From NCBI GenBank assembly GCA_013289085.1, contig JABDAR010000004.1:5184-69183 (forward strand): DNA of 64,000 nucleotides. Reading direction: 5' to 3'. A program made the position numbers and the translations under genes. The stretch's first letter is position 1. Each line of letters starts with the position of its first letter. This DNA is from Gammaproteobacteria bacterium (lineage in GTDB: Bacteria > Pseudomonadota > Gammaproteobacteria > JABCZS01). The notes beneath the pieces were generated by a model. The model was not told the origin of the DNA and made no database searches. It was given only the letters and a program-made list of their open reading frames with translations. Of the stretch, positions 383 to 51,773 are shown piece after piece.

Positions 383-572
383 GATAATCACGTTTTTTAT
401 TGTGAGATATTCGCCATACCTATGATTTGTACATAGCGTTTTTAAATTCTGTCTCTATAATTTAAAAATATCGTATTGTTTGGAAGCATGTGTTATTCGA
501 CTATGTTTCAGATAGTGTCTAGGTTATCTAAATGTTCTTCAAGTTAATTCTTATATATAAGAGGATAAAATA

Positions 573-1991
573 ATGACTAAAGGTATCAGTTTCAAATTCG
601 CACTTTTAGGTTGCGTTTCATCATGTTTGATGAGTGCAGCGTATGCAAATACAAGTAATGAAGGGATAGTGACCCTTGAGCTGTTGGCAGGAGAAGACAT
701 CAGAGGCGTTACTTGCGGCGCAGATGATCGTTATTACACATTCCAATTAACTAATGGAACAGATGATGATTTAACTATTAGAAAAATTCATGTTGAAAAT
801 AACAGCGGCCATGATAGTCCAATTGATTTTCATCATTTTGTAAGAAATACAACTCCAGTATCAGGTGAGTGCCAATGGGATGGTAATGTTCTTGATGAAG
901 GCGATGATTGCTTAATTACTGTCAAAGTTGATGCAGATAGTCTTGACTGCGGCAGCGCAATTCCAGTAGAAGCTGTTTTTACTGGCGAATTAGAAGTTGA
1001 ATATAGTGATGCAGAATTTAGTGAAATTGAAGCAGATATCACAATTCCAGTGACCATAGTGGGCTCTGGTGATGATGTTAGCTTGTTAGGTCAAAATCTT
1101 TGCGGTACAGAATATTCTCAGCAAGGCCAATGCGATATCGACAGCCTATCAAATTTAGCAGCTACAAATGTCACTGTAGATCAAGATTTAGTAGCAACCT
1201 CAGAGACTGCTTATATTTCTTCTAATATTGTTTCAGTTAACGGTGATAAATATCGTGATGATGATATCATCGCTGAAAATGCAAAATCTGATGTGAAAGC
1301 AGCATTCAATAATATTATGGATCTTGCAATCGATGGGCCTTTTCTTGCAGATGCACAAGATTCTTCTGTAGGTTTAGGTTTTAGCAGTAATTGTAGATTA
1401 TTGGCTTATGATTGGTTTAATACTCCTGTAGATCCTATGGATTTAAGTCTAGGAAATGTAGAGCGTACAATTTCTGGCGGTGGTCTATATTGCTTCACTA
1501 CAGATGATGGCGACACTTTACCAGGCTGTGACGATGTGGAACCTGTGGTCATCAATACAAACGTTATTGTTGAAACCACTCAACCTGCTATTTTTGTCAT
1601 AAATCCTGAGGTTTGTGATCCTCGTGATGGCAGTTTACCCGATGATTTCTACGCACTTGTGATTGGTGAAGATGGCAATAATGTTGCAAACTTTAATGTG
1701 GATACAGATATTGGTGATCCACGTGTAAGTGCGGGTAATCTATATTTCTTTGTAGATGGTAAAGCTGAAATGCATGCTCCTGCAGCAACTTCAGATACTT
1801 GCGATCCAACTACAGACCCAGACTGCGATTATAATCTTGCCGGTAGATATATACTAGAAGACTACTTTGAAGCAGATGCTGGTGATTTCCCTGCCAACAT
1901 CATAGGTAATATCTATTCTACTAGAGGCAGTGTAGGGTTAGTTGAAGGTTATGTTGTAAATGACCCAAATCCAACAGTAGGTACTAAATAA
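573..1991 (+). CDS. Secreted, highly acidic, Cys-containing protein, paralog 1 of 3. Function unknown. N-terminal beta-sandwich-like module plus a C-terminal region with DUF3494/ice-binding-like motif order.
   Basis: RBS gaggataaaataATG. Sec signal MTKGISFKFALLGCVSSCLMSAAYA|N. My hand count gives about 83 Asp+Glu versus about 20 Lys+Arg, and 12 Cys in the mature part. Motifs VTCG, DDCLITVKV, GLYCF, AIFVINP, LYFFVDG and NIIGNIY are shared in order with ORFs 2030-3457 and 4380-5612. Confidence 0.7.
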   Translation: MTKGISFKFALLGCVSSCLMSAAYANTSNEGIVTLELLAGEDIRGVTCGADDRYYTFQLTNGTDDDLTIRKIHVENNSGHDSPIDFHHFVRNTTPVSGECQWDGNVLDEGDDCLITVKVDADSLDCGSAIPVEAVFTGELEVEYSDAEFSEIEADITIPVTIVGSGDDVSLLGQNLCGTEYSQQGQCDIDSLSNLAATNVTVDQDLVATSETAYISSNIVSVNGDKYRDDDIIAENAKSDVKAAFNNIMDLAIDGPFLADAQDSSVGLGFSSNCRLLAYDWFNTPVDPMDLSLGNVERTISGGGLYCFTTDDGDTLPGCDDVEPVVINTNVIVETTQPAIFVINPEVCDPRDGSLPDDFYALVIGEDGNNVANFNVDTDIGDPRVSAGNLYFFVDGKAEMHAPAATSDTCDPTTDPDCDYNLAGRYILEDYFEADAGDFPANIIGNIYSTRGSVGLVEGYVVNDPNPTVGTK

Positions 1992-2029
1992 GTTTAGGTA
2001 ACTAATACAGATTATATAATGAGGATAAA

Positions 2030-3457
2030 ATGATGAGTAAAGTATTTAATTTAAAATTAGCAGTAATGGGTTTTGTATCTTCTACCTGCTTGATTGGTGC
2101 CGCTAATGCTGAAGTTGGTGTGACTGGTGCAGTGGTTGAGCTTAAGCAAATAGGCCATCACCATGAAGATGGTATATTGCCTGTTGCCTGTGGAACTGAA
2201 GAATTTACAGTAAAGTATAAGTTAAAAAACATAAGCGATGATCCTGCAACTATTACCAGCGTTGATACTATTGTAATTAATCCCGGTGATCATTTTTTTC
2301 TTGACCCAGAAAATGAAACTGTAACTGTACTTCCACCAGATGATAAAGATGATTGCGGTTATAAGTTACCATTTACATTGGCAGGCGATAATGATGACGA
2401 TGGTGATGGTGAATCATGCTATATACATGTACAAATCAATCCTGAATCACATGCCGTTCAAGCTCTTTGTGAAGACAATGTATTTGACCCCGCAATAATA
2501 ATCGACAGAACTTTAGATGTTGAAGGTTATGTAGATTTTGGTGGTGCAACTGCTCCGATTACATTTCCAATTACAACATTGGGTGCAGCTGAAACATTGT
2601 CAATATTAGGTAATAATATTTGTGATGAATCAGAGAGTTCAAACATCTTACTGCCTTGCGATAATGGTGATTCAAGCCTAAATGCAGGTTTCAGTACAGT
2701 AGAGCAGAATGTAGCTGTATATGGTTGGGGAAATGGATTACTAAATCCTGATGGATATATTACACCGTCATTAAGTGGTTACCCACATGCTTATGATGGT
2801 GATGATAGAGAAACTGATCGTTTTATTGATGATTCTGAAGCTGCATATAATAATTTATTAGCCATGGCAAGTGATGTTTGTAGTGGTGGTGCTAATCAAT
2901 ATCCAGCATATCTAACAAGTAATCAGACTGTTCCTCCTACTATTGAGATTCCTGTTTCACAAGCTATAGAAATAGATGGTGCAGGTGAAGGTATGCCCAC
3001 CTTTATATGTACTGACACACATGATATTACTCAAATAGATAATACGATTACATTAGATGGCGCAGGGATTTATGTCTTCGTTATTAATCCAATCCTACCT
3101 GTTGACCCAGATGACTTTATTTCGCTTAACTTCTTAGCAAATGCTGATATGGAATTAACTTGTATTGATGATAGCGATCCAACTACATGTGCGGAATCTG
3201 GTGATGTATTTTGGGTAGTGAATGGTCAGATGGAAGTTGATCCAACATCTCCAGATGATAATGATAATCCAGTAGTGGATAATCTTTACGGATCATTTTT
3301 ATTAAAAGGTGGTTTGGAATTTGATACAGCAATGAATACTGGAACTAACATTATCGGTAGAATTTTATCATTTGATGGTGAAAATGTTATACTAGATGGT
3401 ACTACAGTGACAGCACCTGAAGACGAAGATGATACTACTGTTCCAGATTCTATCTAA
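2030..3457 (+). CDS. Secreted, highly acidic, Cys-containing protein, paralog 2 of 3 (function unknown)
   Basis: The upstream context is nearly the same as paralog 1 (tatataatgaggataaaATGATG). Signal peptide ...CLIGAANA|E. Motifs VACG, SCYIHVQI, DRTLDV, LGAAETLSILG, GIYVFVINP, DVFWVVNG, NIIGRILSFDGENVILDGTTVTAP. Acidic tail EDEDDTTVPDSI. Confidence 0.7.
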   Translation: MMSKVFNLKLAVMGFVSSTCLIGAANAEVGVTGAVVELKQIGHHHEDGILPVACGTEEFTVKYKLKNISDDPATITSVDTIVINPGDHFFLDPENETVTVLPPDDKDDCGYKLPFTLAGDNDDDGDGESCYIHVQINPESHAVQALCEDNVFDPAIIIDRTLDVEGYVDFGGATAPITFPITTLGAAETLSILGNNICDESESSNILLPCDNGDSSLNAGFSTVEQNVAVYGWGNGLLNPDGYITPSLSGYPHAYDGDDRETDRFIDDSEAAYNNLLAMASDVCSGGANQYPAYLTSNQTVPPTIEIPVSQAIEIDGAGEGMPTFICTDTHDITQIDNTITLDGAGIYVFVINPILPVDPDDFISLNFLANADMELTCIDDSDPTTCAESGDVFWVVNGQMEVDPTSPDDNDNPVVDNLYGSFLLKGGLEFDTAMNTGTNIIGRILSFDGENVILDGTTVTAPEDEDDTTVPDSI

Positions 3458-3480
3458 TAGGACTTGACTGTAAGCTGTAA

Positions 3481-3515
3481 AAAGGGGAAGCTGTTCATTT
3501 GAATGTTTCCCCTTT
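3481..3515 (+). terminator. Possible stem-loop terminator/attenuator between paralog 2 and the OMP gene
   Basis: aaaggggaa (3481-3489) pairs with ttccccttt (3507-3515). The loop is long and the T-tail weak, so read-through is plausible. The stem sequence resembles the terminator at 5629-5658. Confidence 0.4.
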
Positions 3516-3576
3516 GTTTACACAAAGGAATTGTTTTAGTTTTAATATTTAGTATTTTTGAGAAGGAACTTAACTA

Positions 3577-4356
3577 ATGTCTACACAACAAAAAATTCTC
3601 CTGGCAAGTACACTCTTGGCGTTCAGTTCAACTGTCGCTTTGGCTGATGAAAATGAAGATCAGCTTGATACTGGCTTTCAACTTAATTTTATGGCTGGTT
3701 TGACTTCACTTGAGCAAGATGGTCATTATGATTTCAGTACAACTGAAAAAGACAGTTTGATTCAAGATGGCACTGATTGGAGTTCTTGGACAATTGCCGT
3801 TGGTGTAGGCTATCTTTACCCTCTACAAGAAGCTGAAGACGATGCTGAATTGACTTGGTTTCCTGCCATAACACCAGAATTAAATTTATATTATCTAAAT
3901 GGTAGTGACATCGAAGGCGATGTATATCGTTACCAAGATCCTGATTTAAATGATGGGACTTATACAAGCGAATTTAGTAGTACCCGTTTAATGTTAGATT
4001 TTGATCTGACAGTAATTGAGATTGAAAAATTTTCTGTATTTGCATTAGCCGGTTTGGGAATTGCTTTTAATAGTACAGATTTAAATGTAATGGTAAACGA
4101 AGAACATAATTTCCCTGATTTCTCATTGGATTCAAATGAAAGTACTGCATTTGCTTATGAGTTCGGTGCAGGCTTTGGCTATGCTATTACAGATGATTGG
4201 GGCGTGTCATTGGAATATCTATACGCAAATCTAGGTGAAGCAAATGTTTCAGGCTCTTCACCAATACCAGGAGATCCTGATGATTTAGTGATCGATAGCT
4301 CAGATATTGACATGACATCACAATCAATTATATTAGGAATGACATTTGCGCTTTAA
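3577..4356 (+). CDS. Small outer-membrane beta-barrel protein (OMP_b-brl / OmpW-Opacity-like class)
   Basis: Signal peptide MSTQQKILLASTLLAFSSTVALA|D. Alternating hydrophobic beta-strand segments (WTIAVGVGYLY, FALAGLGIAF, AYEFGAGFGYAI, WGVSLEYLYANLG, SIILGMTFAL). RBS aagga. Confidence 0.7.
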   Translation: MSTQQKILLASTLLAFSSTVALADENEDQLDTGFQLNFMAGLTSLEQDGHYDFSTTEKDSLIQDGTDWSSWTIAVGVGYLYPLQEAEDDAELTWFPAITPELNLYYLNGSDIEGDVYRYQDPDLNDGTYTSEFSSTRLMLDFDLTVIEIEKFSVFALAGLGIAFNSTDLNVMVNEEHNFPDFSLDSNESTAFAYEFGAGFGYAITDDWGVSLEYLYANLGEANVSGSSPIPGDPDDLVIDSSDIDMTSQSIILGMTFAL

Positions 4357-4379
4357 TTTAAATCATAAGGAAATACAAA

Positions 4380-5612
4380 ATGAAAATAAGATTTAAACAT
4401 CATATTGCACTTATTAGTCTTTGTGCAAGCGGTGTATTTATGCAATTTGCTCAAGCAAATTCATGTGACGAAGGCTGTGATGTTATTATTGAACCACCTG
4501 AATTGACTCCCGTCGCTTGTGGTCCAACTTCACAAATTTTTCCTTATAAAGTCATTAATTTAATTGGTAAACCAATTGTCATCGAAGACTGGGATATATT
4601 GACAGATGATCATGATGGCGAAAGAGATGGTGATTCTTGGCCAGACATTAAGGATCTTGTTACAATTCAATCTTCTAAAGATTGCAAAGCAAATGAAGCC
4701 AACACAGAAGAATGTTGTGAGTTGGGTGAATCTTTTACCGACGAATGTATAGTCAATGTATCTATTAATACCACAGAAATAGGATCTTGTCCTGCTGGAG
4801 GTTTACGAGGAAATATTGACAGAACTTTACGACTTGATATAGAGAGTTGGCAACCATTTGCTTATGCGCCTATCGATCTAAAAGTTACTAAAAAAGGTGA
4901 TTTACGTGATTGGACTTACCTTGGTCCTAGCGTAATTAACTTTGCCGATGCAAATGCGCAAGCGAATAAAAACGTGGGACAAACAGATGATGATGGATTT
5001 ATTACTGAAGATAAAATCGATTTAGGACCAGGTGCAAATTTTTACCTGTGGTATCAAACTAAAACCATGAATGCATTAGCTAATTTAGAAGCTGTCTTTT
5101 TGAACTACTATCTTTACTATTTTAGTAGTACTGAGATTAGTAGTAAACTGGGATCTAACGGTGATGAAGCCGAGTTAGCGGCTAGTTTTTATAAATTTAA
5201 TCCAAAATATTGGCCTGTAACACTTGATGGAACACTTACGATTAATGGTGGAAAGAATCAAGAAGCAGTGTTTGTGCTAGCTGGTTTTGAAGATTCAACT
5301 CCAGAGAAGATTATTTTCAGTGTATTGCAAGGCGGAAAAATAGAACTTAAAGGTGGAATTCGTCCTGAAAACGTAACCTTTGTTTTGGATAATGGTTCCG
5401 CTGAAACAGAAGGTGATTGTACACTTGTAGGCACTTATATCATTAATAATGGTGGATTTGAAGATGAACCTGTGGATCTCGCTGGCCCTTGTTATATTAA
5501 CGGGAGTGTTTTCGTATTAGTTGATGATGATGATTCAGATCCAGATGAACCGCCATTTGATCCTGAAGATACTAACATCAATTTATTTGGTACGACTGCA
5601 AATACACCATAA
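4380..5612 (+). CDS. Secreted acidic Cys-containing protein, paralog 3 of 3 (most divergent; function unknown)
   Basis: Signal peptide ...GVFMQFAQA|N. Motifs VACG, DECIVNVSI, DRTLRLD, AVFVLAG, NVTFVLDNG, TLVGTYIINNGG, INGSVFVL. Acidic tail DDDDSDPDEPPFDPED. RBS aagga. Confidence 0.65.
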   Translation: MKIRFKHHIALISLCASGVFMQFAQANSCDEGCDVIIEPPELTPVACGPTSQIFPYKVINLIGKPIVIEDWDILTDDHDGERDGDSWPDIKDLVTIQSSKDCKANEANTEECCELGESFTDECIVNVSINTTEIGSCPAGGLRGNIDRTLRLDIESWQPFAYAPIDLKVTKKGDLRDWTYLGPSVINFADANAQANKNVGQTDDDGFITEDKIDLGPGANFYLWYQTKTMNALANLEAVFLNYYLYYFSSTEISSKLGSNGDEAELAASFYKFNPKYWPVTLDGTLTINGGKNQEAVFVLAGFEDSTPEKIIFSVLQGGKIELKGGIRPENVTFVLDNGSAETEGDCTLVGTYIINNGGFEDEPVDLAGPCYINGSVFVLVDDDDSDPDEPPFDPEDTNINLFGTTANTP

Positions 5613-5628
5613 TAGATTGTTGGGAATT

Positions 5629-5658
5629 AAAAAGGGGAACATTGTTCCCCTTTTTTTA
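5629..5658. terminator. Bidirectional rho-independent terminator (paralog 3 on +, mltD on -)
   Basis: aaaaaggggaac-att-gttccccttttttt: a GC-rich stem flanked by an A-run and a T-run, lying between convergent genes. Confidence 0.75.
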
Positions 5659-5671
5659 TTGCTGAATATTT

Positions 5672-6784
5672 TTAAGCACCACGTGGGATTTTAAGTTTTT
5701 GTCCAATCTGCAGATTATTTGAAGACAAATTATTATATTGTTGTATCATCGCCACACTTGCACCATGGGTTTTACTGATTTGATTTAATGAATCACCTGC
5801 TTGAACTACATAACTGTAAGTTGCTTTCTTTACAGGTACATAATTGGCTAGTGCAGTTTCAAAGATTTCTACTTTATCATGAGGTATTAATAACGTATCG
5901 GTGTTATTAGCAATAATGGTTTGGGTAAAACCAGGATTCATTTCAAGTAATGTTTCAGGTTCAACATCCGCTAAATCAGCTGCAATAGTGATATCTAAAT
6001 AATCTTCCACATCAATATCAACTACAGCCACTTGTGGTTCATCAGGAACAACAGGTAGTTCCATATCATGACGTTCATAGTGCTTTACTACATCAGCAAG
6101 GGCAATCAGTTTAGGGACGTAATTTAATGTTTCTTTAGGTAGGTTATTTAAATCCCAGAAACTAGTACCACGACCAGCGGCTTTATTTTTCGCAATTTCT
6201 TTATTAATACGGCCATGGCCCACGTTATATGCAGCTAACACTAAGTGCCAATCATTGTCATAAACAGTTGCTAAATACGCTAAGTGATTTAATGCCGCAT
6301 CTGTAGATTCTTGCACAGAACGACGGCCATCATACATGCTGTTTTGAACAATCTTATAATGCTTAGCTGTAACAGCCATTAACTGCCATAAACCTGTAGC
6401 ACCGGCGTGTGAGCGCGCATGTGGATCATACATACTTTCAATTACTGGAATTAATACAAATTCCATAGGCAAATCGCGCGCTTTAATTTCTTCCGCTATA
6501 TAATAGAGATAAGGTTCAGCACGGCTAAAGACTTTTTCAATATAATCAGGGTTGTTAAGAAACCAGGTGCGATGGGTTTGCACAAGCTTTTGCTCTGTGG
6601 CATGATCTAAGCTAAAATCAGCGCGCAGGCGATCCCATAAGTTGTCGTCGTCGTGTTCGGTGGGAATTGGGCGTTCGCTTGATTCTGGTATTAAAGGCAC
6701 TTGTAATGCACCAGAACTCACGACCAATCCTACGACGATAAAGAACAATGATAAATGCTTGATAAACTTATTTATTGTGTTCAT
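5672..6784 (-). CDS. mltD: Membrane-bound lytic murein transglycosylase D-like (SLT domain + LysM)
   Basis: N-terminal anchor/signal. SLT core ESMYDPHARSHAGATGLWQLM ... AAYNVGHGRI. C-terminal LysM YVVQAGDSLNQISKTHGASVAMIQQYNNLSSNNLQIGQKLKIP. Confidence 0.85.
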   Translation of the reverse strand: MNTINKFIKHLSLFFIVVGLVVSSGALQVPLIPESSERPIPTEHDDDNLWDRLRADFSLDHATEQKLVQTHRTWFLNNPDYIEKVFSRAEPYLYYIAEEIKARDLPMEFVLIPVIESMYDPHARSHAGATGLWQLMAVTAKHYKIVQNSMYDGRRSVQESTDAALNHLAYLATVYDNDWHLVLAAYNVGHGRINKEIAKNKAAGRGTSFWDLNNLPKETLNYVPKLIALADVVKHYERHDMELPVVPDEPQVAVVDIDVEDYLDITIAADLADVEPETLLEMNPGFTQTIIANNTDTLLIPHDKVEIFETALANYVPVKKATYSYVVQAGDSLNQISKTHGASVAMIQQYNNLSSNNLQIGQKLKIPRGA

Positions 6785-7358: not shown

Positions 7359-8063
7359 ATGCGTCAAATAGTACTCGACACAGAAACAACGGGCTTGAGC
7401 CCGGAAGCAGGGCATCGCATTATCGAAATCGGTGCACTTGAATTAATTAATCGCCGTTTAACCGGTAAACAATTTCATTATTATTTAAATCCTGATCGTG
7501 ATGTCGATTATGGTGCACAAAAAGTCCATGGCTTAACCCGAGCATTTTTAAAAGATAAACCCCGTTTCCCAGAAATTGTGCGCGAATTCCTAGCGTTTAT
7601 TCGCGATGCAGAATTAATCATTCATAATGCGCCCTTTGATATTGGTTTTTTAAATTATGAATTATCGTTACATGATAAATCTTTAGGCATCATTTCAGAT
7701 TATGCACAAGTACTGGATAGTTTAGTGCTCGCCCGCAAACAACATCCCAATCAAAAAAATTCACTCGATGCGCTCAGCAAGCGTTATGAAATAGATTGTT
7801 TTGATCGCGAGCTTCACGGCGCTTTATTAGATTCAAAAATTTTAGCACAGGTTTATTTATCAATGACGGGTGGTCAAGCCGATTTATCGCTTGAACTTGA
7901 AGAAAGCAGCAAGGTTATTGTAGAAAATAAAGAACAGGCAGAACAACAACATCAACCTTTTAAAGTCATTTATGCAGATACAACAGAGTTGGCAATACAT
8001 GAACAATATCTACAAAAAATAAAAGAGGCCAATCGTGGGCAATGTGTGTGGTTACAAGACTAA
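7359..8063 (+). CDS. dnaQ: DNA polymerase III epsilon subunit (3'-5' proofreading exonuclease)
   Basis: Exo I MRQIVLDTETTGL, Exo II IIHNAPFDIGFLN, Exo III HGALLDSKILAQVY. RBS aagga. Confidence 0.93.
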   Translation: MRQIVLDTETTGLSPEAGHRIIEIGALELINRRLTGKQFHYYLNPDRDVDYGAQKVHGLTRAFLKDKPRFPEIVREFLAFIRDAELIIHNAPFDIGFLNYELSLHDKSLGIISDYAQVLDSLVLARKQHPNQKNSLDALSKRYEIDCFDRELHGALLDSKILAQVYLSMTGGQADLSLELEESSKVIVENKEQAEQQHQPFKVIYADTTELAIHEQYLQKIKEANRGQCVWLQD

Positions 8064-10350
8064 TGTGATTCATGATTACCAAGCATTCCTAAGCGAACTA
8101 GGTAATGCCGATTTAATTCTCACACCTACGCGGCGTCTTGCCAGCCGTCTTAATCAAGATTATGCAAAACTACAAGCCAAGCAAAATAATAGTGTCTGGA
8201 AAATTGATATTATTTCACTTAATGGTTGGCTAGAAAGACTTTGGCAGGAACGGCAAGATGATGTAGATCAAACTTATATGACACGTTTAAATGCTTGGCA
8301 AAATTTATTGATATGGCAATCATTCACCGATAATAATGAACAGCTGGCCCGCCTGGCTATACAAGCGTGGAGCAGTTTGAAAGAGTGGAATATTGATTGG
8401 CAATCGATTGATACCCATAGTGTATCATCAGATATTCAGGTTTTTTTAACTTGGTGTCAACACTACCAAGCACGCTGCGATAAAGAAAATTTATGTGATT
8501 CGGCAAGCATGCTCGCGCTGCTTAAGCCCAATGCAAATAACATAAATAAAATATATTTAATTGGTTTTACAGATATAAAACCTGCAGTTTTAAAGTTATT
8601 GGAAAGTGTAAACACCTCTATTGAAATATTAGAATATCGAGTGCCTGATGCGATTATAAATCATACGCCGCAAGTTGATGCAAATTCTGAATTAGTACAA
8701 GCAGCCCTGTGGGCTAAAGCATTACTCAAGCAAGAGTTAAGCGCACCTATAGGCATCATTATTCCAGATTTAGCCAAACGGTTTAATGAAGTTGAAAATA
8801 TATTTTCAAGAATTTTGATGCCTGAAACATTATTAGCTAATCACTATCATGATCAAAAACCCTATAATATTTCATCAGGTAATAAATTATCAGATTTTCA
8901 TATTATTGCCACAGCATTTAATTTATTACGGAACCTGTCATTGCAAGCGGAGCGAAGCAACCCAGGTGATTGGTCTGAAACCATAAAAAATCATTTACAT
9001 TCTTCTGGCTGGCCAGGTGAGCGTGTATTGAATAGTTTAGAGTATCAAGTCGTCAAACGTTTTTATGAATTGTTAACTGATTATGCCACCCTAGATAGGG
9101 TACAAGAAAAAATATCATATATAACTGCAGTCAACCAAATTTATCAACAGGCCAGCACGGTTATATTTCAAGGTGAAAGTGAGCATGCGCCTTTACAAAT
9201 TCTGGGCGCCTTAGAAGGCGAGGGATTGTATTTTCACGCATTATGGGTAATGGGCTTGCATCATGAAAACTGGCCGCCACCCTCAGCGCCACATCCGTTT
9301 TTGCCGATTGATTTACAGCGTCAACATCACATGCCACATGCGAGTCAAGAGCGTGAATATATTTTCGCAAGCCATTTAACCGAGCGCTTTACCGAGCAGG
9401 CACATCATGTGATTTTAAGTTACCCACAAATTATCGAGGATAAAACATTATTACCCAGTCACTTAATACGTGATTATCCCATTTTAAATCAAAAAATTCA
9501 TGATGAATTAGCGGTATTCGATCCAAACTTAAACCTTGAAACATGGCAAGATGTAAATGTACCCTTTAAAAAAGATAAAGTATCAGGTGGTGTCGGTTTG
9601 TTGCAGTCGCAAAGTGTTTGTCCATTTCAAGCATTTGCACGTTATCGTTTGAAAGTAGCGATTGAAGAACCCGCACAAACCGGGCTCACATTTGCAGAGC
9701 GCGGAGAACTGACGCACGCAGCTTTAGAGTTTTTTTGGAAAAACATTGAGACATCAAGTGCTATGCATGCGCTCAATAATGATGAGTTAAATGAGATGAT
9801 TAAAACATCCGTTGATCATGCGTTAAAGCAGTTTACGCCCAGCAAACATTTAGATTTAGAAAAAATCAGATTACATAAATTATTAAATGAATGGTTACAG
9901 CTCGAAAAAACCAGACCCGAATTTAAAGTAATTCATACTGAAAAAAGTATTGATATTAAGTTATCAAATCTCAAATTACGTACACGCATAGACAGGATAG
10001 ATCAGCTACCTTCTGGAGAAGTTATTTTAATTGACTATAAAACGGGGCAGATTTATCAAAATGATTGGTTAGAGGCACGTCCACGACAAGTGCAATTACC
10101 GCTCTACGCCATTAGTTTTCCAATCGCAAGCAGCGTTGCGATTGCAAAAGTAAAAGCCAATGATCTGCAATTTCAACATCACACAGAATTTGATTTATCC
10201 TGGGATGAGATGAAAGTGCATTGGCAAAATGTTTTAAGCGAGCTTGCCGATGAATTTTTTGAAGGCGAAGCTATCGTTGCGCCCCTAGATGGCGAGCATA
10301 CTTGTCAATATTGTGGCTTAGCATTATTATGCCGAATTAGGAGCGCATAA
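8035..10350 (+). CDS. addB: AddB-like PD-(D/E)XK nuclease subunit of a helicase-nuclease complex
   Basis: C-terminal nuclease block IDRIDQL...VILIDYKTG is bracketed by four Cys (CPFQAF ... CQYCGLALLC), as in AddB Fe-S nuclease domains. The stop overlaps the addA ATG. GTG 8035 overlaps dnaQ by 29 nt, and the in-frame GTG at 8065 is an alternative start. Confidence 0.75.
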   Translation: MGNVCGYKTNVIHDYQAFLSELGNADLILTPTRRLASRLNQDYAKLQAKQNNSVWKIDIISLNGWLERLWQERQDDVDQTYMTRLNAWQNLLIWQSFTDNNEQLARLAIQAWSSLKEWNIDWQSIDTHSVSSDIQVFLTWCQHYQARCDKENLCDSASMLALLKPNANNINKIYLIGFTDIKPAVLKLLESVNTSIEILEYRVPDAIINHTPQVDANSELVQAALWAKALLKQELSAPIGIIIPDLAKRFNEVENIFSRILMPETLLANHYHDQKPYNISSGNKLSDFHIIATAFNLLRNLSLQAERSNPGDWSETIKNHLHSSGWPGERVLNSLEYQVVKRFYELLTDYATLDRVQEKISYITAVNQIYQQASTVIFQGESEHAPLQILGALEGEGLYFHALWVMGLHHENWPPPSAPHPFLPIDLQRQHHMPHASQEREYIFASHLTERFTEQAHHVILSYPQIIEDKTLLPSHLIRDYPILNQKIHDELAVFDPNLNLETWQDVNVPFKKDKVSGGVGLLQSQSVCPFQAFARYRLKVAIEEPAQTGLTFAERGELTHAALEFFWKNIETSSAMHALNNDELNEMIKTSVDHALKQFTPSKHLDLEKIRLHKLLNEWLQLEKTRPEFKVIHTEKSIDIKLSNLKLRTRIDRIDQLPSGEVILIDYKTGQIYQNDWLEARPRQVQLPLYAISFPIASSVAIAKVKANDLQFQHHTEFDLSWDEMKVHWQNVLSELADEFFEGEAIVAPLDGEHTCQYCGLALLCRIRSA
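8937..8969. repeat. Family C mini-repeat, copy 1, in frame inside addB
   Basis: gtcattgcaagcggagcgaagcaacccaggtga matches 12848-12880 inside the unrelated addA gene at 32 of 33 nt. It encodes SLQAERSNPGD. Confidence 0.8.
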
Positions 10351-19720: not shown

Positions 19721-20371
19721 ATGCGTATTATATTATTAGGCGCCCCAGGGGTAGGGAAAGGTACACAAGCAAGTTTATTGGCACAAGCGCTTAATATTCC
19801 TAAAATTGCAACCGGTGATATGTTGCGCACTGCAGTACAAGAGCAAAGTTCTTTGGGTTTAAAAGCCAAATCATTTATGGATGCTGGGCATTTAGTGCCT
19901 GATGATGTCATCATAGGATTAGCTGTAGATAGAATTCATCAAGCAGATTGCCAACCAGGTTTTATATTTGATGGGTTTCCGCGTACACTTGCACAAGCGC
20001 AAGCTTTGCAAGAGCATCAGGTAAACATTGATCAAGTGATAGAGATTCAGGTCAGTGATGAAGAAATCATTCACCGCCTAAGTGGTAGACGTATTCATTT
20101 ATCTTCCGGCAGAATTTATCATACGCACTTTAATCCACCTAAAATAGAGGGTAAAGATGATCATACCGGTGAAGATCTAATTCAACGTGAAGATGATAAA
20201 GAAGTAACGATTCGTAAACGTTTGCAAGTGTATCGTGAACAAACAGAAGCGTTGGTTTCTTATTATAAAAATATGCCAGGTGATGCACCAGAATTTCACA
20301 CGATTTCCGGGGTAGGGGATACGAATGAGATTCATAAGAAAATGTTGGAATTATTGCAATTCAAACGTTAA
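19721..20371 (+). CDS. adk: Adenylate kinase
   Basis: [18 protein letters not shown]-loop, [14 protein letters not shown], and a LID segment [12 protein letters not shown] lacking the Zn Cys. RBS aggag. Confidence 0.95.
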
Positions 20372-22438
20372 CCACACACTGCGTGGACTACCTACAGTAA
20401 CATTTGAACGGCGATAACCGTAGTAATAGGTGACATCGTTTATATTTTCGATGTTTAAACGAATGGCTAATTCTTTATCTTGTTCGCGAATGGGAAAGTA
20501 ATACGCAGCGCCGGTGTCTACGCGTGCGTAAGGATCTAAAATAAATGTATTTTGATCATCACCATAGCGTTCTCCTTCATAAAATACACCTGCATTTACG
20601 CCGAAATTATTTAATTTACCTTTATGAAAACGATATTCACCCCATAAAGTCGCAGCAAGTTTCGGAACTGCTGCGGGCTGATTACCTGCAATATCAGGTT
20701 CATTATCTTCTGAAAATTCTGCATCTAGCCACATTAGCGTACTTAATATCGTCCAATTTTCATAAACTTTACCTTGCGCGCCTAATTCTAAACCTTGATG
20801 GTGTTGTTCACCGCGTTGAATAATAATCACTTCATTAGGATCATCCCCACCTGTTTCCTCGGTGATTGGTTGATTATGCCGTAAAATATCAAACACAGCC
20901 GCGGATAACAATAAGTGTGAATCAAATAATTCCATTTTGGTACCCACTTCTACTTGTTCAGAAAAAGTAGGTTCCAGTGCTTCACCAAAATTAACGGCAT
21001 TTCTATCACTCACAGGTTCATTAAACTCAAAGCCTTCACTGTAACTGATATAGTTACTCCAAAATATAAGTGGTTTGTATAATAATGCTAAATGTGGACT
21101 CGTATGATTGATACTGCTTTCATCTAAAGTAGAAGAATCCGCTTGATAAGTATCAAAACGCGCACCCAATATAAATTCCCATTGCGTACTGAGTTGTACC
21201 ACATCTTGTGCATAAACCCCTATATTATGGGTGAGCACACTAGTCGGATCTTGGAATTCACCAAAGTCAGGTTCATCTAAAGTAGGGGGATCATAAATAC
21301 TGTAAGTTTGTGTCACAATCGCTTCGGTTTCTTCGGCTTCATGATCCATCAATGAATAGCTTGTACCGAATAATAATTTTTGATCAAGTCCAAGAAATGC
21401 TACATCACCCATGGTTTCTACCAAGACATTGTAATAATTCCAAGTATCTAAGCGTCGATAAATATTATATTTAAAATCACCATTATCTTCACTTGATAAT
21501 AACAAATTACTTAAAATACGATCGCGAGTGACGTATTGATAAAATAATGCGCTGTGCAGTGTCCAATCATATGACAAATCACTATAGTTATCTAAAAATG
21601 TATTAATAGAGCTTTGATCAGTTTTAGTCCACTTTTGATTTAAATATGCACTGCGTGGAAGATCTGCAACATGCTCGCCCACTGCGACCAGCCCACTGTC
21701 TTGAGGTTGGGTACTGTTTTGCACATTAAAATTAAACCAGGTATCCGTATTATCGAGCGTATCACCATTGACACTCATATCAAATAATTGCCGGTTTTGA
21801 TAATACACATCACGAAAGCTATTAGCATCTTGCACAGCTAAATTAGCACGATAATCTACCTTGTCAGTACTTTGATTGAGATCAGCATAAGCACGGTAAT
21901 AGTCCCAACTACCCGCCTGTACGCCGCCATTATTAAAATCTTCATCTTGCGGTTTTTTGGTTATAAAATTAATCATACCGCCAGGCGATCCCGGTCCATA
22001 TAAAAAAGAAGAGGGACCTTTTAATACTTCAACCCTATCAATAATTTCAATGGCAGGTGAATCTAAAAAGAAATAGAGCAAACCATTGCGTAAATAATTG
22101 CCTGTAGGATTTAAGCTAAAACCACGTGAACGAAAATTGGATCGCGTGCCAAAACCACCTTCATTACTGAGACTGGCATCATTTTTGAGAATATCATCAA
22201 CATTAATAGCTTGTTGATCATCCATGACTTCATCGTCAATAACAGTACTGGACTCAGGACTATCAAGCGGTGCTAAACCAACACGATTGCCAGTTCCAGT
22301 CACATCAATGGCTTCTGCTGTGACTTCTATGGTGTCGAAGGTAAAGACCGGCGTTGTATCATCTTCAATGGCATACGCTGTAGTTATACTGAACACATAT
22401 ATAACTAAGCTTGCTAAATAAACTCTGATAACGCTCAT
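20351..22438 (-). CDS. TonB-dependent outer-membrane receptor (siderophore/iron-type)
   Basis: Signal [23 protein letters not shown]. TonB-box-like [13 protein letters not shown]. Plug motif [28 protein letters not shown]. Long beta-barrel. Start at ATG 22438, not 22501, because the upstream 21 codons run across the Fur-box region. Confidence 0.85.
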
Positions 22439-22467
22439 AGGGGTTACTTCACTAAATGATTTGCAAA

Positions 22468-22492
22468 TGCAAATGATAATGATTATTATTCG
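22468..22492. promoter_or_regulatory. Putative Fur box in the divergent receptor / tonB-exbBD intergenic region
   Basis: gataatgattattattcgg matches 14 of 19 positions of the consensus GATAATGATAATCATTATC. It is preceded by a related aatgatttgcaaatgc. Confidence 0.5.
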
Positions 22493-22513
22493 GAATAACA
22501 AGAGGAACAGTTC

Positions 22514-26579: not shown

Positions 26580-28415
26580 ATGCCAAAAAAGAAAGGCCCA
26601 CTTGAAGAGGGCGATAAATTATTTGATCAAAAGAATTTTGCAGAAGCAAAGATTAAGTATCAACAAGCCGTCCTTTCTGGCAGCGCTGCGGCCAGAAACA
26701 ATTTAGGTATTATTGCGGTAATAAATGATGAATATAATGACGCTTATCGTTTATTTTATGAAGCAATGCTCGCAGGCGATGTAGATGCTCTTCATAATCT
26801 TGGCGCATGCTATGAGTATGGAATTGGCGCTCCAGAGTATATCCCTTGCGCCATACATTATTACGCTAGAGCGTCAATGGCGGGGAATGATCCAGCCACA
26901 AAAACATTTGAAAATTATATAAAGGCACAAGCGCAAGAATTAGCCAATACATTGCTTGCATCCGAGACTTCACAGATAACAGATATTATCGAGTCAAAGA
27001 TAATACAATCTGTTATTCCAGATAATGTCATGACGCCTTTTCAATTATTAAAACATCCTACTAATCGCAAGGTTGTTACCAGTATTTTGCGAGAAGCACA
27101 AAAATGTATTGTAAAATCCACATCTCCTAAAGTATTGGCAATTCTTTCCCAATTGTTTAGATATGAATTTGTCATTCATGATTATAGATATAATAGTGAT
27201 CGAAATTTAGGCATAAATTGGGGTAAGGTGTACGATTTAATTAAAGAATTTCAAAGATATCAAAATTATCTGGAGAAGAACCGTGCATCTAAAGCAAACG
27301 TATTTAAATCCATATTTAATACCTTAAAGATTGAATTTTTAACAAGCACACAACGAAAGTTTATTTATAATGATTTTTTAGTTGAGATTAATAATGAAGA
27401 TTGGCAATTGTCAGATGCGTGCAAACGATTGGCAAAGGAATTTGCATCGATGATTATAGGAGCTAAGCCACCTATCAGTATTCTTGAAATACTTGATGTC
27501 AATACCGATCTTGATAATCAATTGGCTAGAGCAGTTATACCTAAATTGCCCTATAAGGCTAATTTAAAAACAATAGAAATATTTAAACACCCTGAGAATC
27601 GTGAAATCGTTGAAAATGTATTGGATGAGGCTGTAGATACCTTAATGAGGTCTTTGACGATTGGCAATGCTGTAAAATTAATTGCGCTACTTGAGTTTAA
27701 AGATAAAATATTTGGCTTAGAAATAGCGCCGTTGTTTTTCATGAAAATATTACATGATTTAAAATTGGTTTGCCCAAGTAATATGATATGGGTATTGGAA
27801 CGATTGGAAAATATCTCGTGTCAGAATGTGCGTGATAGCAATGGTTTTTATACCATAATGGATAGAATGGTGGCGGTTATCGACCCAAACAGCGTTGATG
27901 ATATTTTGAAAGAACTAAGCCATGCCATCACCAATATGGTTACTGCTATTCATGCAACGTCGCCCAATACAGTATTATGGAAACAAGCACGACACATTTT
28001 AGCAGAATATCGTATGGCATTGATTGCTTATATGTATCAAAGGACAAATCAATTGGATCCAATTGTTGAAATAATGTCAAAAGAAAATGATCTTTCTGCT
28101 AGAAATAATTGGCCAGTTATTTTTTCTAAATTACCTAGACCACCAGAAGGGGTGGATCGTTTAACTTTCACGAGTGATGCGATGTGGTTTGTAACTACGC
28201 TCAAAGGTTCTAAATTAATTGTTTTAAATGACACGCATAGTAATTTACTAAAAAATGTTAATCACCTCCAAAATTTTATTGAATCTTACGATACTTATCT
28301 TATCCAATTAGAAAAGGGTACAAATACTTCTAAAAAAATCACACCTTCGAGGAGTAGCACCCCTCAAATCCCAGCAAAGAACTCATCTACCGATGTTAAG
28401 AGTTTATTAATTTAG
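26580..28415 (+). CDS. Sel1-repeat (SLR/TPR-like) protein with a long unique C-terminal region containing an internal duplication; effector candidate
   Basis: Sel1-like units AARNNLGIIAV...AYRLFYEAMLAGDVDALHNLGACYEYGIGAPEYIPCAIHYYARASMAGN. Internal repeat FQLLKHPTNRKVVTSILREAQKCIV (about nt 27050) versus IEIFKHPENREIVENVLDEAVDTLM (about nt 27580). Confidence 0.6.
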   Translation: MPKKKGPLEEGDKLFDQKNFAEAKIKYQQAVLSGSAAARNNLGIIAVINDEYNDAYRLFYEAMLAGDVDALHNLGACYEYGIGAPEYIPCAIHYYARASMAGNDPATKTFENYIKAQAQELANTLLASETSQITDIIESKIIQSVIPDNVMTPFQLLKHPTNRKVVTSILREAQKCIVKSTSPKVLAILSQLFRYEFVIHDYRYNSDRNLGINWGKVYDLIKEFQRYQNYLEKNRASKANVFKSIFNTLKIEFLTSTQRKFIYNDFLVEINNEDWQLSDACKRLAKEFASMIIGAKPPISILEILDVNTDLDNQLARAVIPKLPYKANLKTIEIFKHPENREIVENVLDEAVDTLMRSLTIGNAVKLIALLEFKDKIFGLEIAPLFFMKILHDLKLVCPSNMIWVLERLENISCQNVRDSNGFYTIMDRMVAVIDPNSVDDILKELSHAITNMVTAIHATSPNTVLWKQARHILAEYRMALIAYMYQRTNQLDPIVEIMSKENDLSARNNWPVIFSKLPRPPEGVDRLTFTSDAMWFVTTLKGSKLIVLNDTHSNLLKNVNHLQNFIESYDTYLIQLEKGTNTSKKITPSRSSTPQIPAKNSSTDVKSLLI

Positions 28416-28483
28416 ACAATAAGCATGGTTTTGAAAAATGACTCTATATGATATAGTGAATTTTTTTCTCTATGAGGTGCGTG

Positions 28484-30286
28484 ATGGGATGGTCAACTGA
28501 TGAAGAATTTATAGCGCTTGTGCATGACAAAGATCTAACTATCGAAGGACTCGCGCATCAATATGGTTCATATCGTGCACAGCTTAGTGAAACCAATGGT
28601 TCAGAAGAGGCGGTTTTACTCGGAAAATTTTTAAGAATACTTTGGACAGAATATCCCGAACCATCTGAGCTACTTATCGAGGCTTCGCCTGCAATGGTGT
28701 TTGAAGCACTTTATGCAATGACGCGTTTAGATGATTTAAAGCAAAAACCTCAAAACGATGAATTAAAAAAATTAAATAAACTGATTGAGCTATTAAAGCA
28801 ACAGAATAAAACCTTTTTAAAAGACTATAAAACAGATACAGATGCTGTAAATAATTATAAAGCTTTTGATGATGATTCATGGGTTTTATTTGAATATTTA
28901 AGCATTCTCATCAAACGTAATCCACAATGTACAAATGAAGATCATGTATTTGCTGATCGTTTAATGAATATTTATAATGCTGTTAGAGCAGATAGGCAAA
29001 AAAGTGTGGCTAGTGCACCTCAAGAAGAGCAACGGCTCGTTGTTATTGCTAAACCACCTGCAAATACTGCACAGCCTATTGAGACTCCTTCAACTATTGT
29101 TGCCGACTCCATTGAAGACAATAAAAACTCCAGCAATAATACACCACCAGCTGAAAATAATAATACTCAAAATAATCACCATAAACATAAGCCCAAAAAG
29201 AAAAATAAACACACCCATAAAGAATCATCAAGCAGAAATGAAAAACCTAAAGAACAAGCGAATGTCTTACTGCAAGAAATACATAAGTTAAAACCGACTC
29301 AGGATACTTTAATAGGTGACGCTTGGGATAAGTTTTTTTTAGTGCTCAGTGAAGCACTTAAGCAATATTTGCCATATAAGAATAATGATCTTCAATCTAA
29401 TGTTTTGCTCATGCATGAACGTAACGAGGCTGAATTTAAAAGAATTATTCTTGAAGCCATTAAATTTACCCAATTAAATGATTTGACGGCTTTTCCTGAT
29501 AAGCAGCTTTTATTAGTAATCATTGGTAAATTTAATGATCGTTGTATTCAACTAAAACACGATACTGTTGCTATCTCATTAGCAACTATCCAGAAATATT
29601 TTGAAGATCCTAGTCCTGTAATATGGAAGAATAGAGCGAGCAGTCAAACAACTAAAGATCATATTTTTAATAAGAACTTTCCAAATACTGCTATACAACA
29701 ATTAACCCTTAAGGACCGTTATGATTTACGTATGAAGTTTGTAAATGCAGTAAAACATTTACCAGCCATGCCTGGTCGTTCTGAATTAATCACATATTGT
29801 GCTAATAAATTGGGCCCTGAAGATGATCCAAGGCCTGCAACTCAACTTGAACCGCAACGTGCATCAGCTTCTTTTCATGTTCCACCTGGTTCAGAAAATA
29901 AACCTTGGGGAAAATTTATTGAAAATGTTTATAAAGTTTTTGAAAAAGATAACCCGCTGTGGAATGAAGATGGCAGTGACACCGAAATCGTCCAAAAATT
30001 GCAACCCATTTTAGAACAATTTAAAAAGGATTTTCCGACAGAAGCAGAGCGTGCGCAAGCACAACGGCATTTCATTAGTTTTATTCCTAGTAATGATTGT
30101 AAATTTGCTAAAGGTGCTGATAGATTTGCATGGTTGTTTCTTGAGGAGATGATCCCTCAATCCACCGCAAGTCTATTATCTCAACGGGAGGCTATTCGTA
30201 ATCTTAAAAAAGAAATTAATCAAACCAATACTCAGTATCAACAAGCTGAATCTTTATTAAAATCTTTATTTACTTACCAGAAATAA
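28484..30286 (+). CDS. Hypothetical protein with an Asn/His/Lys-rich low-complexity, NLS-like segment; effector candidate
   Basis: Long ORF with no recognisable catalytic motif. Basic patch NNHHKHKPKKKNKHTHKESSSRNEKPKEQ. ATG 28484 (gagg 6 nt upstream) is preferred over 28472. Confidence 0.55.
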   Translation: MGWSTDEEFIALVHDKDLTIEGLAHQYGSYRAQLSETNGSEEAVLLGKFLRILWTEYPEPSELLIEASPAMVFEALYAMTRLDDLKQKPQNDELKKLNKLIELLKQQNKTFLKDYKTDTDAVNNYKAFDDDSWVLFEYLSILIKRNPQCTNEDHVFADRLMNIYNAVRADRQKSVASAPQEEQRLVVIAKPPANTAQPIETPSTIVADSIEDNKNSSNNTPPAENNNTQNNHHKHKPKKKNKHTHKESSSRNEKPKEQANVLLQEIHKLKPTQDTLIGDAWDKFFLVLSEALKQYLPYKNNDLQSNVLLMHERNEAEFKRIILEAIKFTQLNDLTAFPDKQLLLVIIGKFNDRCIQLKHDTVAISLATIQKYFEDPSPVIWKNRASSQTTKDHIFNKNFPNTAIQQLTLKDRYDLRMKFVNAVKHLPAMPGRSELITYCANKLGPEDDPRPATQLEPQRASASFHVPPGSENKPWGKFIENVYKVFEKDNPLWNEDGSDTEIVQKLQPILEQFKKDFPTEAERAQAQRHFISFIPSNDCKFAKGADRFAWLFLEEMIPQSTASLLSQREAIRNLKKEINQTNTQYQQAESLLKSLFTYQK

Positions 30287-43996: not shown

Positions 43997-44728
43997 CTAT
44001 TCAGATTTTAAAACAAGCGTAATTAAATCACTTGCAGGCATATAACCTGGAATAACCGTACCATCTTGTAAAATAATAATCGGCGTTGCACTTGCACCTA
44101 TGCCACGAATAAATGCGGTATGTTCAGCAAAAGGATCTTGGCAATCAGCAGGTTTTTCTGGGGGAGTACCACCTTTAAGGACGCTATCGAGCGTAGCTTT
44201 AGGATCTTTAGCACACCAAATGGCAGCAGATTTATCATAAGAAGGTGTGCCTTTAGGCGTTCTTGGAAAGGCAACATATTGCACAGTAATGCCGGCAGCA
44301 TTAAGCGCAGGGATTTCTTCGTGGAGTTTTCGGCAATAGCCACAATCTATGTCAGTCCCGATGGTAATAACGGCTTTTTCTTTATCGGTTGCAGGGAAGG
44401 TGATAAAGGTTTTAGGGTCAATTTTAGCTAATTCAGCTTTAACATAGACTTGTTTTGATTTTTCAGTGATGCTGGTGATAGTATCATTTTTAATTTCAAA
44501 TAATTCACCATAAAATAAATATTGGCCATCTTCACTGACGTAGAAAACAGAAGGCCCGCTGGTTACTTCATAAAAGCCTTTTACAGGCGTTGGTTTTACG
44601 CTATCAACGTTGATTTGAGGCACGGCTTTAATGAGCATTTGTTGCATGCTGTCAACAGAAGGAGTATCTGCATAAGTGGCATAAGAAATTAAGACTAGAC
44701 TGCTGAGTGTAAAAATCCGTTTTAACAT
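43997..44728 (-). CDS. dsbC: Thiol:disulfide interchange protein (disulfide isomerase) DsbC
   Basis: Signal peptide, N-terminal dimerisation-type domain, thioredoxin fold with active site CGYC (DIDCGYCRKLH). Confidence 0.82.
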   Translation of the reverse strand: MLKRIFTLSSLVLISYATYADTPSVDSMQQMLIKAVPQINVDSVKPTPVKGFYEVTSGPSVFYVSEDGQYLFYGELFEIKNDTITSITEKSKQVYVKAELAKIDPKTFITFPATDKEKAVITIGTDIDCGYCRKLHEEIPALNAAGITVQYVAFPRTPKGTPSYDKSAAIWCAKDPKATLDSVLKGGTPPEKPADCQDPFAEHTAFIRGIGASATPIIILQDGTVIPGYMPASDLITLVLKSE

Positions 44729-51767: not shown

Positions 51768-51773
51768 TAAATA

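Follow-up and report, generated by a model that had tools for sequence, protein, structure and literature searches.

Proteins with the ice-binding-like DUF3494 domain that carry signal peptides and flanking beta-sandwich domains have already been described, as has the unexplained occurrence of DUF3494 proteins in hundreds of bacteria whose habitats do not freeze (PMC11645318). Here, we describe a group of four genes from an uncultured Legionellales-like gammaproteobacterium (assembly GCA_013289085.1), located close to the start of a 64,000-nucleotide stretch of contig JABDAR010000004.1, to which we refer as “the window”; three of the genes encode divergent, hyper-acidic paralogues (P1, P2 and P3) that are related to the DUF3494 proteins, and the fourth, located between P2 and P3, encodes a small outer-membrane beta-barrel.

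The architecture of the paralogues consists of a signal peptide, an immunoglobulin (Ig)-like beta-sandwich of about 140 amino acids (aa) with four invariant cysteines, and a divergent DUF3494 beta-helix. The comparison of the window with the loci of relatives, with protein families and with solved structures has led us to read the locus as a rapidly diversifying surface or secreted module of the cell envelope, in which the barrel may act as an anchor. We put the probability of this reading at about 0.5, a value that refers to the whole of the proposed mechanism, which sets out from the observed architecture, linkage and divergence and proceeds by inference from there.

The features of the locus are as follows (coordinates, strand, description):

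501..572, +, 5' leader and ribosome-binding site of P1; TATATAAGAGGATAAAATA precedes the ATG; conserved in the close relative L001
573..1991, +, P1, 472 aa; signal peptide ~1-25, Ig-like Cys-containing N-terminal domain to ~160, divergent DUF3494 beta-helix (predicted) ~160-466
2030..3457, +, P2, 475 aa; P1-like architecture, with a DxDxDG-type acidic loop at residues 120-127
3482..3514, +, hairpin downstream of P2; AAGGGGAA, 17-nt loop, TTCCCCTT; terminator-like, with a weak T tract
3577..4356, +, small outer-membrane beta-barrel, 259 aa; signal peptide, 8 predicted amphipathic strands, 4 long acidic loops, C-terminus GMTFAL
4357..4379, +, barrel-P3 junction, 23 nt; ribosome-binding site, hairpin-free
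4380..5612, +, P3, 410 aa; signal peptide 1-26, Ig-like N-terminal domain ~34-172, DUF3494 beta-helix (predicted) ~173-408 with the hallmark long helix at 227-248
5629..5655, both strands, intrinsic terminator; A-run, GGGGAAC/GTTCCCC stem, T-run; common to the module and the convergent MltD-like gene

The four open reading frames (ORFs) lie on the same (+) strand, with boundaries identical to those given in an initial annotation of the stretch, which had been made from the sequence alone. The database copy of P2 is 474 aa long and begins at the second ATG (2033), which is probably the true start of the gene. Upstream of P1, the window contains the 3' part of an ABC ATPase gene of the oligopeptide type.

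The C-terminal domain of the paralogues

An exhaustive hidden Markov model (HMM) search of 1.84 billion cluster representatives has returned 66 matches, five of which were the query's own and about 55 of which were full-length, at 350-510 aa; word-indexed searches of 5.8 billion proteins yielded only one syntenic relative and one protein from a metagenome-assembled genome (MAG). The family alignment that was used in the comparisons below comprises 55 sequences, i.e. the three window paralogues and 52 relatives. The Pfam model PF11999 (Ice_binding / DUF3494) is matched by 41 of these sequences (best E=1.8e-16), and the comparison of the family profile with the Protein Data Bank (PDB) has revealed matches to 25 solved ice-binding proteins over profile positions ~160-384, with E=3.6e-35 for 5uyt. 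The link surfaced only with the 55-sequence profile; PDB sequence searches with P3 alone or with a six-sequence profile gave no match. In Pfam and NCBIfam scans of the single window paralogues, the sole hint was the sub-threshold score of P3 with PF11999, 13.1 bits (E=0.074) against a threshold of 28.7, while P1 and P2 gave no match; the window paralogues are, therefore, very divergent members, recognisable only by profile and fold comparison, and their genes would stay “hypothetical” under Pfam thresholds.

The AlphaFold2 model of P3 that was based on the 55-sequence alignment has a predicted local distance difference test score (pLDDT) of 89.3 and a predicted template-modelling score (pTM) of 0.86; an AlphaFold run with a six-sequence alignment was poor (pLDDT 50). 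In the P3 model, a beta-sandwich (~34-172) leads into one coil, then a long helix (227-248) and stacked beta coils, a succession that agrees with the canonical DUF3494 layout of one initial coil, a long helix and beta coils (PMC11645318). In Foldseek, ice-binding proteins make up the whole of the top 28 PDB matches of this model (probability 1.00, target TM-score 0.39-0.74), and ice-binding proteins are also the best, though weak, PDB matches of the C-terminal half of the P2 model, which is of low confidence. From these profile and fold comparisons, the C-terminal 240-300 residues, depending on the paralogue, are predicted to be a divergent DUF3494 / ice-binding-like beta-helix, the paralogues being members of the superfamily by profile and fold and not by the per-sequence Pfam threshold. 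The initial annotation had stated that no characterised system of this composition was known; for the C-terminal domain this no longer holds, since the HMM searches, AlphaFold modelling and Foldseek comparison place the paralogues in a family with solved ice-binding structures.

The N-terminal domain, the signal peptides and the relationship of the paralogues

In the family alignment, the N-terminal domain contains four invariant cysteines, at P3 positions 47, 113, 123 and 137, and it is predicted as a beta-sandwich in the P3 model. The family profile also matches the giant repeat proteins P0052 and P0063, which are built of PF22544 HYDIN/VesB/CFA65-like Ig and ASH domains, and in the P2 model, which is of low confidence, the N-terminal part is similar to the Ig domains of VesB and VesC, to HYDIN and to CEP192; the Foldseek matches to these proteins are weak (E 0.006-0.9). 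None of the 55 aligned family members matches the PF22544/ASH models at E<=0.01 in a Pfam scan. We assign the N-terminal domain, with moderate confidence, to the ASH-like Ig domains.

The three paralogues were described in the initial annotation as old and retained duplicates, and this description is borne out by their comparison: P1 and P2 are 26% identical across their full length (E=3e-17), and the pairwise matches of P3 are marginal (E=0.006 with P1, E=0.016 with P2), while a family HMM from which the window proteins and their close orthologues had been left out matches P1, P2 and P3 end to end (E ~1e-60, HMM positions 1-384). For P1, the match has E=2e-59 and covers positions 2-380 of 386. 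The collinear order of motifs that had been proposed for the three proteins is seen in their alignment, with the exception of the DRTL motif, which is absent from P1.

Sec signal peptides, likewise proposed earlier, are recognisable on all four products; they were assigned by reading the sequence and not by a predictor, and each consists of a K/R-containing n-region, a hydrophobic core and an AxA motif (AYA/N, ANA/E, ALA/D and AQA/N for the four N-termini, the slash marking the cleavage site). Across the family, the signal peptides follow the consensus ...KLALLGCxSSCLxxAAxA. Many of them contain LLGC, which led us to consider a lipoprotein reading; we have rejected it, as the cysteine is located at about position 14, inside an unbroken hydrophobic core with AxA at its end, and is absent from P2 and P3, so that cleavage by signal peptidase I is preferred. 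Neither PEP-CTERM, GlyGly-CTERM nor similar C-terminal sorting tags were found in the paralogue sequences. A further local element is located at residues 120-127 of P2 (window 2387-2410), where DNDDDGDG fits the DxDxDG pattern of calcium-binding loops; P1, P3 and the barrel have no such loop.

As a separate observation, the signal peptide is more conserved than the mature region (window 573-650, 2030-2110 and 4380-4457, and the family alignment), with a mean pairwise identity across the family alignment of 36% for the signal peptides versus 25% for the mature domains, which is the opposite of the usual pattern; the conserved region may be a recombination anchor, a regulatory element or the reflection of a specific targeting need.

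The small outer-membrane barrel

Judging from its sequence, the fourth gene codes for a barrel of the OmpA-like type, for which eight strands and long acidic loops are predicted. The protein matches the Pfam model PF13505 (OMP_b-brl) over residues 12-225 with 42.8 bits (cut-off 28.7, E=8.1e-11), and among solved structures the transmembrane domain of OmpA is the closest to it, with a weak match (E=0.004). The eight strands were obtained from an alternating-hydrophobicity scan; the mature protein, of about 236 residues, starts after the cleavage motif ALA/DE and ends in GMTFAL, which resembles a beta-signal. The four long loops, taken as extracellular, hold 26 of the 46 aspartate and glutamate residues (D+E) of the barrel. 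With the model of the Rickettsia Adr adhesin (NF052636), the barrel scores 29.1 bits against a cut-off of 210.

The initial annotation had suggested that the barrel anchors or exports the paralogues. The second alternative, i.e. a dedicated outer-membrane translocator in the style of two-partner secretion or of the autotransporters, draws on the tight linkage of the genes and on the weak, sub-threshold similarity of the barrel to the autotransporter models PF03797 (17.6 bits, cut-off 26) and TIGR01414 (15.4 bits, cut-off 16). The barrels known to translocate proteins are made of 12 strands in the autotransporters and of 16 strands plus POTRA domains in TpsB/Omp85, and barrels of the size of OmpA and OmpX have no channel that is able to pass a folded protein. 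The paralogues, being separate Sec-dependent proteins of 40-50 kDa with multiple conserved disulfides, likely fold in the periplasm, and a barrel of eight predicted strands is too small for such a cargo; we therefore regard export by the barrel as extremely improbable, while its role as an anchor is plausible.

Conservation of the module in relatives

Locus scans with the paralogue alignment returned only one MAG, from the northern peatland SPRUCE site, among the genomes and none among the metagenomes; further loci were retrieved with the alignment of the barrel. The relatives are labelled “Legionellales bacterium” or “Gammaproteobacteria bacterium”, in agreement with the initial guess of a Legionellales origin. 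The module occupies a syntenic slot that is composed of the oligopeptide-type ABC ATPase gene, the module, the convergent MltD-like SLT/LysM gene, rnhA, dnaQ and a PDDEXK nuclease gene, and the same slot and order (ABC gene, a number of paralogues, barrel, P3-type copy, MltD-like gene) is found in at least three lineages besides the window. What varies is the number of copies upstream of the barrel, each locus having one copy after it: two in L001, five to six in L008, L009 and L010, and at least seven in L006, i.e. a total of 3 to at least 8 copies per locus. In the family tree, the P3-type copies that follow the barrel group together as a single orthologous clade; the copies upstream of the barrel stem from lineage-specific expansions.

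The pairing of the barrel with a family member is also found outside the syntenic slot. In L011, from a MAG labelled Legionellales by NCBI, a barrel homologue (E=2e-61) precedes two family members at a distance of 9 nt, in the neighbourhood of nrdAB and icd. The barrel homologue of L014 is separated by 17 nt from the downstream gene for a 691-aa protein in which the N-terminal domain is present twice and DUF3494 is missing, which points to the Ig-like domain, and not the beta-helix, as the part that is tied to the barrel. Counting the ABC/MltD locus, L011 and L014, the order of barrel and then family member, at a distance of 9-26 nt, thus occurs in no fewer than three independent contexts, and the co-occurrence of the barrel and the paralogues in relatives, at syntenic and non-syntenic loci, upholds the link that had been proposed between them.

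The same distribution bears on an explanation in which the two kinds of product make no contact: the paralogues would be freely secreted or periplasmic, and the barrel would be an independent porin, adhesin or structural protein, the genes being co-located and co-transcribed only through shared envelope regulation. Consistent with such independence are the arrays that have no adjacent barrel (L007 and L012), the barrel genes without an adjacent family member (L015/L016), the hairpin between the upstream paralogues and the barrel, and the paralogue sequences themselves, which have no in-register lipobox, C-terminal sorting tag or transmembrane segment; the L012 sample does have a barrel gene on another contig (L015). 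We nevertheless consider it unlikely, given that the close order of barrel and family member recurs in independent genomic contexts and that the barrel has the raised divergence of the module, concentrated in its loops.

Three further observations were made in the loci of relatives. In L014 (5968-8849), the two tandem four-Cys Ig-like domains of the 691-aa protein are followed by about seven Cys-containing repeats (VSCTG...C.A.G) that have no Pfam match. In L011 (8001-12423), a further family member is followed, after 16 nt, by a 1095-aa protein with Cadherin_3 repeats, another link of the family to adhesin-type genes. In L008, one paralogue (7787-9039) is split into pieces of 288 and 119 aa and the barrel (9170-9916) is truncated at its C-terminus; their counterparts in L009 (7784-9040 and 9171-9974), at a near-identical locus, are intact, and the broken copies are the result of either gene decay or an assembly error.

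Divergence between close relatives

The genes of the window were compared with their orthologues in L001; values in parentheses correspond, in this order, to the amino acid identity, the nonsynonymous divergence (dN) and its ratio to the synonymous divergence (dN/dS). The flanking genes are all well conserved (82-97%, 0.02-0.12, 0.04-0.12), with nucleotide identities of mostly 85-96%; among them are the MltD-like gene (96.8%, 0.019, 0.04), rnhA (97.2%, 0.018, 0.04) and dnaQ (89.7%, 0.054, 0.10). The values for P1 (49.2%, 0.489, 0.36), P2 (49.5%, 0.460, 0.42) and P3 (52.8%, 0.403, 0.25) are of a different order, with the mature coding regions diverging 4-25 times faster than the flanking genes, and the barrel (72.6%, 0.168, 0.14) has an identity of 82% in its strands and 63% in its loops. 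Deeper comparisons give the same ranking.

The identity profile in steps of 100 nt has sharp boundaries. The leaders and signal peptides form conserved islands, at 94% for P1 (bin 501-600, which includes the first 28 nt of the gene) and 82% for P2; two further islands, of 84% each, cover the barrel-P3 junction and the terminator, and the mature coding regions in between are mostly at 40-65% (40-60% beside the leaders and signal peptides).

This turnover is relevant to the possibility that the paralogues are genuine ice-binding or cold-protection proteins, secreted or held by the barrel, that inhibit the recrystallisation of ice or attach cells to it, with several isoforms broadening or boosting the activity. 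The proteins matched by fold and by profile are, specifically, ice-binding proteins characterised by experiment, one family member is named “ice-binding family protein” by NCBI, and the SPRUCE relative comes from a northern peatland; acidic pI values and flanking beta-sandwich domains are known in bona fide ice-binding proteins (PMC11645318), and type II secretion is reported to aid the growth of Legionella pneumophila at low temperature, which we take as a lead only (PMC6617341). We regard this possibility as quite unlikely: DUF3494 proteins are found in hundreds of bacteria from non-freezing habitats (PMC11645318), the window proteins have diverged below the Pfam threshold, the barrel also partners a protein without DUF3494 (L014), and such a fast turnover between close relatives would be unexpected for a face that matches the invariant lattice of ice.

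Hairpins, initiation contexts and the duplicated cassette

The AAGGGGAA...TTCCCCTT stem occurs at exactly two sites of the 64-kb window, 3482-3514 and 5632-5652, with 0 expected by chance; both hairpins are kept in L001, and the second scores as a terminator on both strands. The two related hairpins that had been noted at 3481 and 5629 are thus the sole such sites in the window, and the presence of a strong bidirectional terminator downstream of the module is confirmed by its score. P1 and P2 share the initiation context TATATAA[G/T]GAGGATAAAAT[A/G]ATG, so that the near-identity of their contexts, also noted earlier, is real, provided that P2 starts at the second ATG, as in the 474-aa database copy.

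In the expanded arrays of the relatives, nearly every copy is accompanied by its own promoter-like element, ribosome-binding site and hairpin; in L006 and L009, an individual AAAGGGG/CCCCTTT hairpin is located after nearly all upstream copies, and a CTATACT promoter-like element precedes each copy of L006 and is found once in L009. Having its own hairpin and promoter-like element, the duplicated unit is, therefore, a self-contained cassette, and the initial suggestion that the duplication included flanking sequence agrees with these arrays. The gap between the barrel and the last copy measures 9-26 nt and is free of hairpins in all seven loci that were checked; this short, hairpin-free junction with its ribosome-binding site suggests that the barrel and P3 are probably bicistronic.

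The promoter-like element of L006 reads GCTTCTATACTTCTTCTGAAG, with a CTTC/GAAG inverted repeat around the TATACT box, and is located before each copy, in the intergenic intervals 1446-1642, 2963-3094, 4490-4644, 6010-6204 and 7549-7751.

Acidity and other features of the window

The composition of the four products was recounted, and the values that had been counted by hand for P1 (83 D+E, 20 lysine and arginine residues (K+R) and 12 mature cysteines) were found to be identical; P1 has 14 cysteines in total and an isoelectric point (pI) of ~4.05. The corresponding values are 83 D+E, 13 K+R, 11 Cys and pI ~4.05 for P2, 68 D+E, 27 K+R, 11 Cys and pI 4.12 for P3, and 46 D+E, 5 K+R, no Cys and pI ~4.05 for the barrel. 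A strong negative charge is general in the family, with exceptions: members from the syntenic loci, L003 and L007 have a net charge of -7 to -19 per 100 residues, and those of L011 and L012 are less strongly charged. In the syntenic barrels, 46-56 D+E and 5-7 K+R were counted.

The extreme acidity is, however, less special than it had seemed, as other outer-membrane proteins of the window have pI values of 4.05-4.44: a TonB-dependent siderophore receptor (20351-22501, -) has a pI of 4.29, and two tandem porin-like proteins with signal peptides have values of 4.44 (50574-51767, -) and 4.05 (51774-53060, -), the second with a Porin_O_P match. The cytoplasmic proteins of the window are at pI ~5.3-7, and the outer-membrane proteome of this organism seems to be acidic in general. 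Because other outer-membrane proteins are acidic as well, the acidity of the module fits an envelope or surface location and is not evidence of special chemistry. The pair at 50574-53060 was also considered as a second locus of the family and was rejected, its proteins being porin-like and outside the paralogue family.

Other genes of the window include a DsbC-type periplasmic disulfide isomerase (43997-44728, -; DsbC_N and a thioredoxin-like domain), which bears on the folding of multi-Cys paralogues, and four large ORFs that have no NCBIfam match, at 26580-28415, 28472-30286, 39264-42359 (-) and 44881-47223 (611, 604, 1031 and 780 aa), which could be lineage-specific proteins such as effectors. 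An Rfam scan of the window matched no RNA families.

Proposed mechanism and significance

In the mechanism that we propose for the diversifying envelope module, all four products would be exported by Sec and cleaved by signal peptidase I, and the paralogues would form their disulfides in the periplasm, for which the DsbC gene of the window would be fitting. The paralogues would next pass the outer membrane over a general pathway, type II secretion being the most likely one, and at least the last, P3-type paralogue would use its Ig-like domain to dock on the acidic loops that the barrel exposes, with divalent cations as possible bridges. The DUF3494 helix would present its flat face as the outward binding surface, for a substrate that need not be ice and may be a mineral, a polysaccharide, or the surface of a host or prey. 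Diversifying pressure from hosts, grazers or phages would drive the turnover of sequence and the changes in copy number. A surface-display or adhesion module had been suggested from the start, and anchoring or another surface role is still the most plausible reading, without the part in which the barrel serves as the exporter.

Several observations weigh against this reading. The window paralogues fall individually below the Pfam Ice_binding threshold, and a confident model was obtained for P3 alone among them. The docking of the Ig-like domain on the barrel is proposed from gene adjacency alone, and there are arrays without an adjacent barrel, of two copies in L007 and of six or seven in L012; as the barrel and the paralogues are both strongly negative, they could bind each other directly only by means of cations or basic patches. 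Genes for type II secretion were not seen in the window, in which no search was aimed at them. Lastly, dN/dS is below 1 and dS is near saturation in the module, so that relaxed constraint or the recombinational import of old alleles also fits the divergence, without positive selection.

A more specific form of the module is an outer-membrane display system, in which the hyper-acidic 8-stranded barrel docks a four-Cys Ig-like adaptor with interchangeable payloads (mostly the DUF3494 beta-helix, and the Cys-rich 7-repeat region in L014), amplified in Legionellales-like bacteria as self-contained, fast-diversifying cassettes into a variable acidic coat; this is a tentative proposal, possible though on the doubtful side. 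If true, it would assign a concrete role, that of binding modules exposed at the surface, to DUF3494 proteins from habitats without ice; a conserved barrel partner and an adaptor-like Ig domain amount to a concrete hypothesis for where and how the DUF3494 proteins of non-freezing bacteria act (PMC11645318). Proteins that are ~50% identical between genomes with ~97% identical neighbours, at a copy number of 3 to at least 8, bear the signature of pressure exerted by hosts, grazers or phages on a surface structure.

Our literature search has found no description of the combination of a four-Cys Ig-like subfamily, a dedicated barrel partner, cassette arrays and extreme local divergence, and no paper that links DUF3494 with Legionellales or with an outer-membrane partner, or that cites the sample accessions.

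Comparison with known systems

The closest described systems are the bacterial DUF3494 ice-binding proteins, e.g. SfIBP_1 (5uyt), FfIBP (4nu2), ColAFP (3wp9) and EfcIBP (6eio), with which the window paralogues share the Sec signal peptide, homology at the level of the profile (E=4e-35) and, in the P3 model, the IBP-1 fold, i.e. a beta-helix with a long alpha-helix alongside; a flanking beta-sandwich is likewise found in many bacterial ice-binding proteins, including that of Shewanella frigidimarina with its tandem beta-sandwich domains (PMC11645318). The likeness is one of sequence and predicted fold. The window proteins differ in falling below the Pfam threshold, in the distinct four-Cys Ig-like type of their N-terminal domain, in a net charge of -10 to -15 per 100 residues, in the arrangement of their genes as tandem cassette arrays beside a dedicated small outer-membrane barrel, and in the extreme divergence of the family between close relatives.

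The N-terminal domain is comparable to the HYDIN/VesB/CFA65-like Ig domains (PF22544, ASH / PapD-like) in its predicted beta-sandwich, and to the Vibrio cholerae type II-secreted proteases VesB (4lk4) and VesC (6bqm) in the match of the N-terminal P2 model to their Ig domain. It differs from the former in that no window protein or family member reaches Pfam significance and in the four invariant cysteines, which are specific to the family; and whereas the Ig domain of VesB and VesC is located at the C-terminus of a protease, that of the window proteins is N-terminal and fused to DUF3494.

The barrel resembles the small 8-stranded barrels (the OmpA N-terminal domain, OmpX, Opa, Brucella Omp25/31 and Rickettsia Adr) in passing the PF13505 cut-off, in its amphipathic strands, short periplasmic turns, long variable loops and beta-signal-like C-terminus, and in its weak matches to OmpA and Adr. 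It differs from them in its extreme charge (46 D+E, 5 K+R) and in its consistent pairing with a downstream gene for a four-Cys Ig-like domain; unlike OmpA, it has no periplasmic OmpA_C domain, and it scores far below the cut-off of the Adr family (29 bits vs 210).

As a whole, the locus is comparable to the hypervariable tandem surface-protein families of host-associated bacteria, a class that we name from background knowledge, in the lineage-specific gain and loss of tandem copies, in the frameshifted copy of L008, and in the conserved 5' and signal-peptide ends and hairpin flanks of genes with highly diverged mature regions. Programmed recombination, silent cassettes and phase variation are not in evidence here; every copy of the locus appears to have its own expression signals.

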